Positions 1,731 through 2,297 are shown, counted from the stretch's first letter. The stretch is 26,476 bases of DNA from Candidatus Kerfeldbacteria bacterium (GCA_903867845.1 CAIPSZ010000035.1:1-26476); one strand, 5' to 3'. Notes: generated by a model not told the origin, from the letters alone. Numbers and translations are program-made.

Positions 1731-1759
1731 TTGACGAACAGTACACCTTCTCGTACAAT
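1731..1759 (+). promoter_or_regulatory. sigma70 promoter of array unit 1
   Basis: TTGACG-N17-TACAAT. Confidence 0.75.
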
Positions 1760-1765
1760 GCAATC

Positions 1766-1885
1766 TCCGTCCCCTATTCCCGTTCATTGTACCGGTTCAA
1801 CCCCGGCCGTTGATGCTCGGACATGCATCGCCCTGTTTCCGTGTTTAGACCTCCCGGCTGTGTATTTCACGGCCGGGAATTTTTT
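1766..1885 (+). ncRNA. candidate small RNA, array unit 1 (type A)
   Basis: Between the promoter and an 11-bp terminator (1852-1878) plus U-tract; shares ccgttgatgc-n-cgg-N4-gcatc with unit 3. Confidence 0.55.
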
Positions 1886-1912
1886 GACTTTCACAATAAA
1901 CGTACGTACCAT
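1884..1912 (+). promoter_or_regulatory. sigma70 promoter of array unit 2, overlapping the U-tract of terminator 1
   Basis: TTGACT-N17-TACCAT. Confidence 0.7.
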
Positions 1913-1918
1913 AACCAC

Positions 1919-2014
1919 AAAGAAACCTAACCGTAGGGGAGGGCGGCAGACCTCCGAGATCAGGTCATATGGTAAATTGAGGGACCCGGGTAGCTCCTCT
2001 ACCCGGGATTTTTT
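1919..2014 (+). ncRNA. candidate small RNA, array unit 2 (type B)
   Basis: Hairpin, gagggcgg, a hairpin with a CCGAGA loop, then terminator cccgggtag-CTCCT-ctacccggg-a-T6. Confidence 0.55.
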
Positions 2015-2041
2015 GACACGAGTTTGTACTCATTCTATACT
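2013..2041 (+). promoter_or_regulatory. sigma70 promoter of array unit 3
   Basis: TTGACA-N17-TATACT. Confidence 0.8.
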
Positions 2042-2047
2042 CGACTC

Positions 2048-2162
2048 CTGAGTATTTCTTATCGCTCTTTGCCCAACCAGGGCCCGTTGATGCACGGTTT
2101 TGCATCTTGACTTCATGATCCGCCTCCGATTCCCGGGCAGGTGCACTGCTCGGGATTTTTTT
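2048..2162 (+). ncRNA. candidate small RNA, array unit 3 (type A)
   Basis: Same core as unit 1; terminator tcccgggcag-gtgca-ctgctcggga plus T-tract (2131-2162). Confidence 0.55.
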
Positions 2163-2189
2163 GACTTTAAAACGATAACTTCATACAAT
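2161..2189 (+). promoter_or_regulatory. sigma70 promoter of array unit 4
   Basis: TTGACT-N17-TACAAT. Confidence 0.75.
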
Positions 2190-2195
2190 ACAGGA

Positions 2196-2297
2196 AAAGA
2201 AAATCCCTCGAAGATGAGGGCGGTTAATCCCCGAGACAGGATTAAATATACGTACCTGCTACAACACCCAGGCGGCTCCTCTGCCCGGGATTTTTTT
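2196..2297 (+). ncRNA. candidate small RNA, array unit 4 (type B)
   Basis: Same layout as unit 2; terminator cccaggcgg-CTCCT-ctgcccggg-a-T7. Confidence 0.55.

Follow-up and report, generated by a model that had tools for sequence, protein, structure and literature searches.

The stretch of DNA analysed here, called the window, is 26,476 nucleotides long and is contig C35 of the source genome (G000: 964 kb, 195 contigs, 91% complete). It contains a gene for an xer-like tyrosine recombinase and, to its right, an operon made of rpsO, a gene with an NYN domain and pnp. The flanking genes were assigned by Pfam on identical loci. Between xer and rpsO, positions 1731-2297 hold four units in the order A-B-A-B, each consisting of a promoter, about 100 nt free of ORFs, and a terminator (Table 1). 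A preliminary description of this region had reported four promoters with 17-nt spacers, a hairpin and T-tract at the end of every unit, and cores shared between units 1 and 3 and between units 2 and 4. All these elements were found again. A consensus promoter scan of positions 1500-2700 returned the four sigma-70-like sites, with their 17-nt spacers, at 1731, 1884, 2013 and 2161, and a site of the same type in front of rpsO at 2367; altogether, seven promoter-like sites were observed in these 1.2 kb, compared with 0.6 expected from shuffles. The period of the units is 129-148 nt, and each of them has one promoter and one terminator, the latter a strong GC-rich hairpin of 9-11 bp followed by 6-7 T. 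In promoters 2-4, the TT of the -35 box comes from the T-run of the preceding terminator, an overlap that had also been described and that is seen at all three junctions.

Table 1. Features of the array and its flanks, in window coordinates
Feature	Position	Strand	Remarks
xer-like tyrosine recombinase	728-1699	-	left flank, divergent from the array
Unit 1 promoter	1731-1759	+	TTGACG, 17 nt, TACAAT
A-type sRNA 1 (predicted transcript)	1766-1885	+	R1 score 88.9 bits
sRNA 1 T-arm-like hairpin	1792-1806	+	loop UUCAACC
sRNA 1 hairpin 2	1812-1829	+	
sRNA 1 ACCUCC	1849-1854	+	
sRNA 1 terminator hairpin	1852-1878	+	T-run 1880-1885
Unit 2 promoter	1884-1912	+	TTGACT, 17 nt, TACCAT; first two T are the end of the terminator 1 T-run
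B-type sRNA 2 (predicted)	1919-2014	+	
sRNA 2 AAAGAAA	1919-1925	+	
sRNA 2 GAGGGCGG	1939-1946	+	
sRNA 2 hairpin	1949-1966	+	loop CCGAGAUC
sRNA 2 terminator	1985-2007	+	loop CUCCU 1994-1998; T-run 2009-2014
Unit 3 promoter	2013-2041	+	TTGACA, 17 nt, TATACT
A-type sRNA 3 (predicted)	2048-2162	+	R1 score 61.1 bits
sRNA 3 hairpin 1	2071-2083	+	without T-loop likeness
sRNA 3 hairpin 2	2089-2106	+	
sRNA 3 CCUCC	2123-2127	+	
sRNA 3 terminator	2131-2155	+	T-run 2156-2162
Unit 4 promoter	2161-2189	+	TTGACT, 17 nt, TACAAT
B-type sRNA 4 (predicted)	2196-2297	+	
sRNA 4 AAAGAAA	2196-2202	+	
sRNA 4 GAGGGCGG	2216-2223	+	
sRNA 4 hairpin	2226-2243	+	loop CCGAGACA
sRNA 4 terminator	~2267-2289	+	loop CUCCU 2276-2280; T-run 2291-2297
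Palindromic multi-copy repeat	2299-2364	.	between array and rpsO promoter; outside the units
rpsO promoter	2367-2395	+	TTGACA, 17 nt, TATAGT; kept in all relatives
rpsO leader	2396-2484	+	~90 nt, conserved
rpsO	2485-2784	+	

The array is real DNA and not an assembly artefact, since the 851 nt that contain it are 100% identical in three further assemblies from different samples, and unit 3 is present, with one SNP, in another sample. Across the 964-kb genome, the junction of T-run and -35 box, GGGA(A)T(5-7)GAC, occurs three times in the array and once elsewhere, and the terminator style CCCGG...CCGGGATTTTT has no occurrence outside the array. The promoter pattern has 189 sites genome-wide, 162 of them with an ORF within 250 nt. 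In a crude scan of the genome, a promoter followed by a terminator within ~120 nt, with no credible ORF before it, was found only at units 1, 2 and 4; the terminator of unit 3 was missed by the crude detector.

Units 1 and 3 have a common core (1807-1829 and 2084-2106), and units 2 and 4 have in common AAAGAAA, GAGGGCGG, CCGAGA and the terminator loop GCTCCTCT. The two diverged A copies and the two diverged B copies most likely go back to an A-B pair that was duplicated. Some ORFs can be drawn over the units, of 134 and 76 aa on the plus strand and of 44-52 aa on the minus strand. These ORFs extend across promoters and terminators without a Pfam match, and no SD-led start codon is conserved among copies or orthologues, in agreement with the earlier statement that the units hold no credible ORF.

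Relatives of the units and the variable xer-rpsO interval

BLAST of the units against 60 relatives gave no match, and homologues surfaced only through synteny and covariance models. Comparison of the xer-rpsO interval among relatives, which had been proposed as a check, revealed both A-type orthologues and a variable interval. Genomes G001, G003 and G004 have one promoter-RNA-terminator unit each, just upstream of the rpsO promoter and with a layout like that of units 1 and 3. A covariance model (R1) trained on these three sequences together with units 1 and 3 gave 71.7 bits at L166, 58.0 at L169, 46.3 at L177 and 39.9 at L183, none of which had been used for training. The units at these four loci are also upstream of rpsO, each with its own TTGAC(N16-17)TAnnnT promoter, and the A-type is thereby present in seven other genomes/contigs.

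An A-type RNA consists, from 5' to 3', of a GUUCUUU-like motif, a T-arm-like hairpin, a second hairpin (hairpin 2), an unpaired CCUCC stretch and a GC-rich terminator. In the nine-sequence alignment of the type (A8), which has three helices, 91% of the cells pair, and double changes are found in 11 of 19 pairs, compared with 3.9 in shuffles (a value reached by 1 in 500). The covariation score was 0.367 against 0.176 in shuffles (0/500), and it was 0.14 or less when the partners were slid by 1-3 columns. Hairpin 2 occurs in the variants GAUCA/UGAUC, GGUCA/UGACC, GAUGC/GCAUC and ACCC/GGGU. Furthermore, single-sequence folds beat shuffles in stability (z -2.2 to -4.6).

The two B copies have a 5-bp stem with three double changes and a conserved CCGAGA loop, and the terminator loop CUCCU is kept in both of them. 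Compensatory changes in the three A-type helices and in the B hairpin point to selection on RNA structure. The corresponding model, R2, found no further copy in 149 genomes of the class, none in 11 other genomes of the family and none at 14 S15-anchored loci of close relatives, and a strict B pattern had 0 matches in metagenome contigs. The single match of the B pattern in the genome collection was rejected as chance; it falls in GC-rich DNA of Frankia, where promoter and terminator are both lacking. The B-type thus appears only in this species, and because its cores are without conservation in the relatives searched, its support consists of two paralogues. Scored with the A-type model, the B units give 17-21 bits, mostly from the terminator.

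The preliminary description had taken the four units for a battery of sRNA genes and looked to conservation of their cores in relatives. The comparative evidence favours this reading for the A-type, which is conserved with its own promoter and terminator and with compensatory changes; the B-type has no counterpart in the relatives searched. The comparison identifies the A-type as a real, previously uncatalogued RNA family at the level of the genus, of which the usual state is one unit immediately upstream of the rpsO promoter, the array of G000 being a local expanded form. The four units are probably real sRNA genes.

Outside the genus, weaker matches were obtained in a second genus of family f1, in G011 (30.7 bits) and in contig 6 of G007 (22.7 bits). 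These putative members keep the 5' motif and the first hairpin, and they do not adjoin rpsO. An A-core pattern with up to 3 mismatches gave noise only in 400 genomes of the class, and an S15-anchored metagenome scan reached only distant relatives (at most 72% identity), with no A-type unit.

The rpsO-NYN-pnp neighbourhood is kept across the genus, and the interval to its left is found in several forms. The order is xer-GDPD-rpsO in G001, L166, L177 and L183; in the G006 type a gene of the CDP-alcohol phosphatidyltransferase family (PF01066) stands between GDPD and rpsO; and in G003, L169 and L167 xer is followed directly by rpsO. The number of units per interval is 0, 1, 2 or 4 among strains. 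From this syntenic comparison, the xer-rpsO interval is a recombination hotspot adjoining a tyrosine recombinase, in which the presence of GDPD and of the PF01066 gene is polymorphic; the polymorphism was read from L025, L026, L053, L166, L167, L171, L177 and L183. The GDPD gene is absent from G000. The possibility that the array is a degraded GDPD pseudogene was ruled out, as tblastn of P0001 and P0002 against positions 1650-2470 gave noise only, with no residual protein similarity.

The short promoter-RNA-terminator units turn over at the site upstream of rpsO in the genus, since relatives carry differing unit types there. A third type, of ~120 nt, is found upstream of rpsO at L167 (2183-2335) and L170 (1-127), and its terminator loop GGAUCCCCUCC matches the 16S tail at 10 of 11 positions. 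In most unit types upstream of rpsO an anti-SD-like C/U motif is unpaired or in the terminator loop; the second unit of L183 has none.

Locus L183 (949-1260) carries a two-unit tandem in which the terminator T-run overlaps the next -35 box as in G000. The first of its units is an A-type variant without CCUCC, and the second resembles the first only in the 5' GUUCUUUCG motif, in GUUUAG and in the type of terminator.

Likeness to tRNA, to the 16S rRNA tail and to known small RNAs

The first hairpin of the A-type has a 5-bp stem and a 7-nt loop, UUCNANN, closed by G and C, which is the pattern of the tRNA T-arm (positions 53-61). Among the 11 best matches that a refined model, R3, gave outside the family in 149 genomes of the class, seven fell on 3' halves of real tRNA genes with a terminator behind them. 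The T-arm likeness is therefore real, and for the same reason the A-type family is not demonstrated beyond the taxonomic family f1. In unit 3 of G000 the T-loop has been lost. T-arm and other tRNA-like modules are known in sRNAs, for example in YrlA/Y RNA. The units themselves are not tRNAs, as ARAGORN and Rfam RF00005 make no call, an acceptor stem is absent and the mimicry is confined to the T-arm. They were also rejected as Y RNA/YrlA, with no match to Ro (TROVE, PF05731) in G000 (91% complete).

The CCUCC stretch between hairpin 2 and the terminator is found in seven of the nine A-type units. In G001, G004, L166 and L177 it extends to 14-17 nt matching the 3' tail of the genus 16S rRNA, with scores reached by at most 1 in 1000 dinucleotide shuffles. 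L166 matches the tail at 15 of 16 positions, 13 of them consecutive, and the near-copies in these four relatives include GAUCA. In the G000 units the likeness is down to the pentamer and is not significant per unit. Since CCUCC is missing from the putative members in G011 and G007 and from unit 1 of L183, the best-conserved element is the T-arm-like hairpin and not the anti-SD stretch. A likeness of B unit 2 to 16S helix 45 in its E. coli form was also considered and rejected: helix 45 of the genus differs, and unit 4 has no such likeness.

In our search of Rfam 15, no family matched the units, and the window and the orthologous loci gave only tRNAs above threshold. The sole match in the window is a tRNA at 621-692, and the best scores over 1650-2500 are 23 bits or less, far under the thresholds. 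The anatomy of the units, their conservation and covariation, and the absence of coding and Rfam signal are direct observations of this analysis.

The LhrC1-5 RNAs of Listeria monocytogenes are multicopy sRNAs of ~100 nt with CU-rich stretches in a loop, in a single strand and in the terminator loop, and these stretches have been shown to pair with AG-rich Shine-Dalgarno regions, blocking initiation (PMC5880928). Similarly, the A-type has a single-stranded C/U stretch and the B-type has one in its terminator loop. The likeness is functional only: unlike LhrC, the array mixes two unrelated-looking unit types, with no relation to LhrC in sequence or in Rfam, the A-type is set apart by its T-arm-like hairpin and by the long copy of the 16S tail in relatives, and the host belongs to the Patescibacteria, with no Hfq found in the G000 genome (91% complete). 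In the cuckoo/CcsR/RSs0680 RNAs of Alphaproteobacteria, sequence conservation centres on an anti-SD-like motif and pairing with ribosome-binding sites has been proposed; their stems have compensatory changes, their clusters reach nine copies, and every one of their 2-4 adjacent hairpins bears CCUCCUCCC in its loop (PMC4615179). The four units lack CCUCCUCCC and have no Rfam cuckoo match. Unlike cuckoo RNAs, each unit has a promoter and a terminator to itself and a single copy of the motif, which reads CCUCC(UUU) in a single strand or CUCCU in a terminator loop. On these comparisons, A-type and B-type would resemble LhrC and cuckoo in the way they work and are members of neither. The A-type would be a new family within the kind of sibling anti-SD-type sRNAs.

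NsiR1 repeats have a promoter and a terminator each. Like the present units, NsiR1 of cyanobacteria (RF02399; PMC4030482) is encoded by tandem short sRNA genes; it is homotypic and ~60 nt long. Matches to NsiR1 here were sub-threshold (17-18 bits, gathering score 39) and covered the terminators. TIGR arrays have 36-nt units with 8-12-nt edge and loop repeats, 9-nt spacers, one precursor and an adjacent Tas gene with a Nop domain (PMC12045711). The present array shares with them the tandem RNA-coding layout, two alternating element types and a host group, the Patescibacteria; it was rejected as a TIGR array because the required periodicity of repeats and spacers is absent. It is not a CRISPR array either, as the preliminary description had argued: there are no near-identical direct repeats of 24-48 nt with unique spacers, and what is repeated, every 129-148 nt, are promoters and terminators. 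A decoy for CsrA was considered as well; CsrA-titrating sRNAs of the CsrB/RsmX type bear many GGA motifs in their hairpin loops. A CsrA-family fragment was found at a contig edge (G000:C138:3-89). The conserved loops of the units are ACGG(U/C), CCGAGA and CUCCU, and the one loop with GGA is that of hairpin 2 in unit 1.

Possible action of the RNAs and rival explanations

The reading we favour, with a probability of roughly 0.5, is that the units are heterotypic sibling sRNA genes whose products pair with ribosome-binding sites. Each RNA, of ~95-120 nt, would be made from its own sigma-70-type promoter and ended at its own intrinsic terminator. The C/U-rich anti-SD-like stretches would then pair in trans with the Shine-Dalgarno regions of mRNAs, such pairing would block 30S binding, and additional copies might boost dosage or broaden the range of targets. 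Transcription, action in trans and targets are here predicted from the DNA. Pairing with ribosome-binding sites, taken by itself as the mode of action, is a tentative proposal of the analysis. Counting against the favoured reading are the 16S-tail likeness reduced to a pentamer in G000, the members that lack CCUCC, the few SD motifs in a crude count of the genome, the absence of a specific target and of Hfq, and a B-type with no orthologue in the searches. As to the role of the RNAs, anti-SD pairing or mimicry is favoured; of the roles that had been listed beforehand, guide arrays are argued against and an antitoxin role is without support.

Target prediction, also proposed beforehand, gave no specific target: the duplexes obtained with 2197 candidate 5' regions were all loose and long, and the rpsO leader ranks 451-1677. 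The B loop region matches the rpsO leader over 7 nt, at CUCGGGG, but this was discarded as close to chance (~0.6 expected). Pairing of A with B, as a sponge or an antitoxin pair, was likewise rejected, as the duplex energies do not improve on dinucleotide shuffles (z -0.9 to +0.5). A crude first-ATG count over G000 shows that SD motifs are rare at -18 to -4 (GGAGG, 3%), and that TATAC/ATACT pentamers, which are -10-like boxes, are enriched at the same positions. There are hints in the sequence that many mRNAs of this genome may be leaderless or very short-leadered. If the count holds, the genes open to the RNAs would be the SD-led ones, a minority in this genome.

An unlikely, but the most serious, alternative is that the RNAs are decoys for proteins recognising the 16S 3' tail or the tRNA T-arm, such as nucleases of 3'-end maturation or decay (among them PNPase, whose gene lies a short way downstream), toxins that cleave the anti-SD, ribosomal or initiation proteins, or T-arm-binding enzymes. 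It stays alive because the T-arm-like hairpin is better conserved than CCUCC. The pick-up of tRNA 3' halves by the family model (7/11) agrees with it, as does the position beside rpsO-NYN-pnp kept in the genus, and the 14-17-nt near-copy of the 16S tail, GAUCA included, in four orthologues exceeds what SD pairing needs. However, the tail copy decays to CCUCC or vanishes in several members, those of G000 among them, unit 3 is without a T-loop, and the unit of the second genus is away from rpsO. A somewhat less probable proposal joins the two likenesses: the A-type would mimic the small-subunit rRNA 3' tail, joined to a mimic of the tRNA T-arm, and, instead of acting on a few particular mRNAs, serve as a decoy, either for SD sites at large or for some protein or toxin binding or attacking the 16S 3' end, with the B-type and its CCGAGA loop as a lineage-specific partner. 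If SD decoys were at work, the balance between SD-led and leaderless translation would be retuned in a genome that apparently uses few SD sites.

The other explanations are less likely than protein decoys. The variable interval (GDPD present or absent, the PF01066 insertion, 0/1/2/4 units) and the species-specific B-type would suit debris, that is, promoter-terminator cassettes left over in a recombination hotspot and at most insulating rpsO and xer from read-through; the compensatory changes in three A-type helices over nine sequences and in the B hairpin, the near-consensus promoters in every copy and the lack of any GDPD remnant make this improbable. We hold it quite improbable that the units control the rpsO-pnp operon in cis, as upstream promoters or attenuators feeding it by read-through. 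They do lie on the rpsO strand, immediately upstream of it in the genus; against such a role, every unit is closed by its GC-rich hairpin and 6-7 T, in all relatives rpsO keeps a promoter of its own (11/12 consensus) and a conserved leader, the spacing between unit and rpsO promoter ranges from ~10 to >400 nt among relatives, and the putative members in G007 and G011 are away from rpsO. Small-protein genes or guide-RNA arrays of CRISPR or TIGR kind come last, as very improbable. Short ORFs can be drawn in some units and TIGR arrays do occur in Patescibacteria (PMC12045711), but the units show neither a conserved SD-led start nor a Pfam match, and guides do not fit units that recur every 129-148 nt, each with a promoter and a terminator, and that lack dual 8-12-nt repeats with 9-nt spacers.

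If, as sibling sRNAs, the RNAs compete for SD sites, they would provide cheap global control of translation initiation for a very small genome. Regulatory RNAs of the Patescibacteria (CPR) are almost unknown, and no Rfam family covers these units. The outcome is a new sRNA family that can be tested, described by a covariance model and compensatory changes and found in eight genomes/contigs of the genus, at an xer-rpsO hotspot with gain, loss and swapping of small-RNA units. Its unusual traits are the T-arm-like hairpin, the long copy of the 16S tail in relatives and the mixed A-B-A-B array into which one species has expanded it.

Elements beside the units

The palindrome between the array and the rpsO promoter is 66 nt long and near-perfect, with 30-nt arms. 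Copies are found in G000 at C114:5699-5764, C131:313-380, C35:19996-20065 and C114:5184-5214, and also in relatives (G001, G003, G006, G007 and others), and the repeat looks REP- or MITE-like. It gives weak miRNA-type Rfam matches because it is hairpin-shaped. Assemblies break 60-240 nt upstream of rpsO in G004:C11, G005:C10 (L048, L050), L168 and L174-L176, which fits repeats or strain variation there.

The rpsO promoter and the ~90-nt leader are highly conserved genus-wide (L025, L026, L048, L053 and L166-L183), and the central hairpin of the leader exists in two variants. The leader has no match to an Rfam leader family and probably serves the autoregulation of S15 in this lineage.

In the second genus, a consensus promoter is found downstream of the A-like unit at L067:1630-2060 (G007 contig 6) and L060:1620-1763 (G011). 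It is followed by ~400 nt of conserved, ORF-poor sequence, starting with GGCCCUAUCGUCUUCC and without an Rfam match, and then by a tRNA; this sequence is possibly another uncatalogued RNA.
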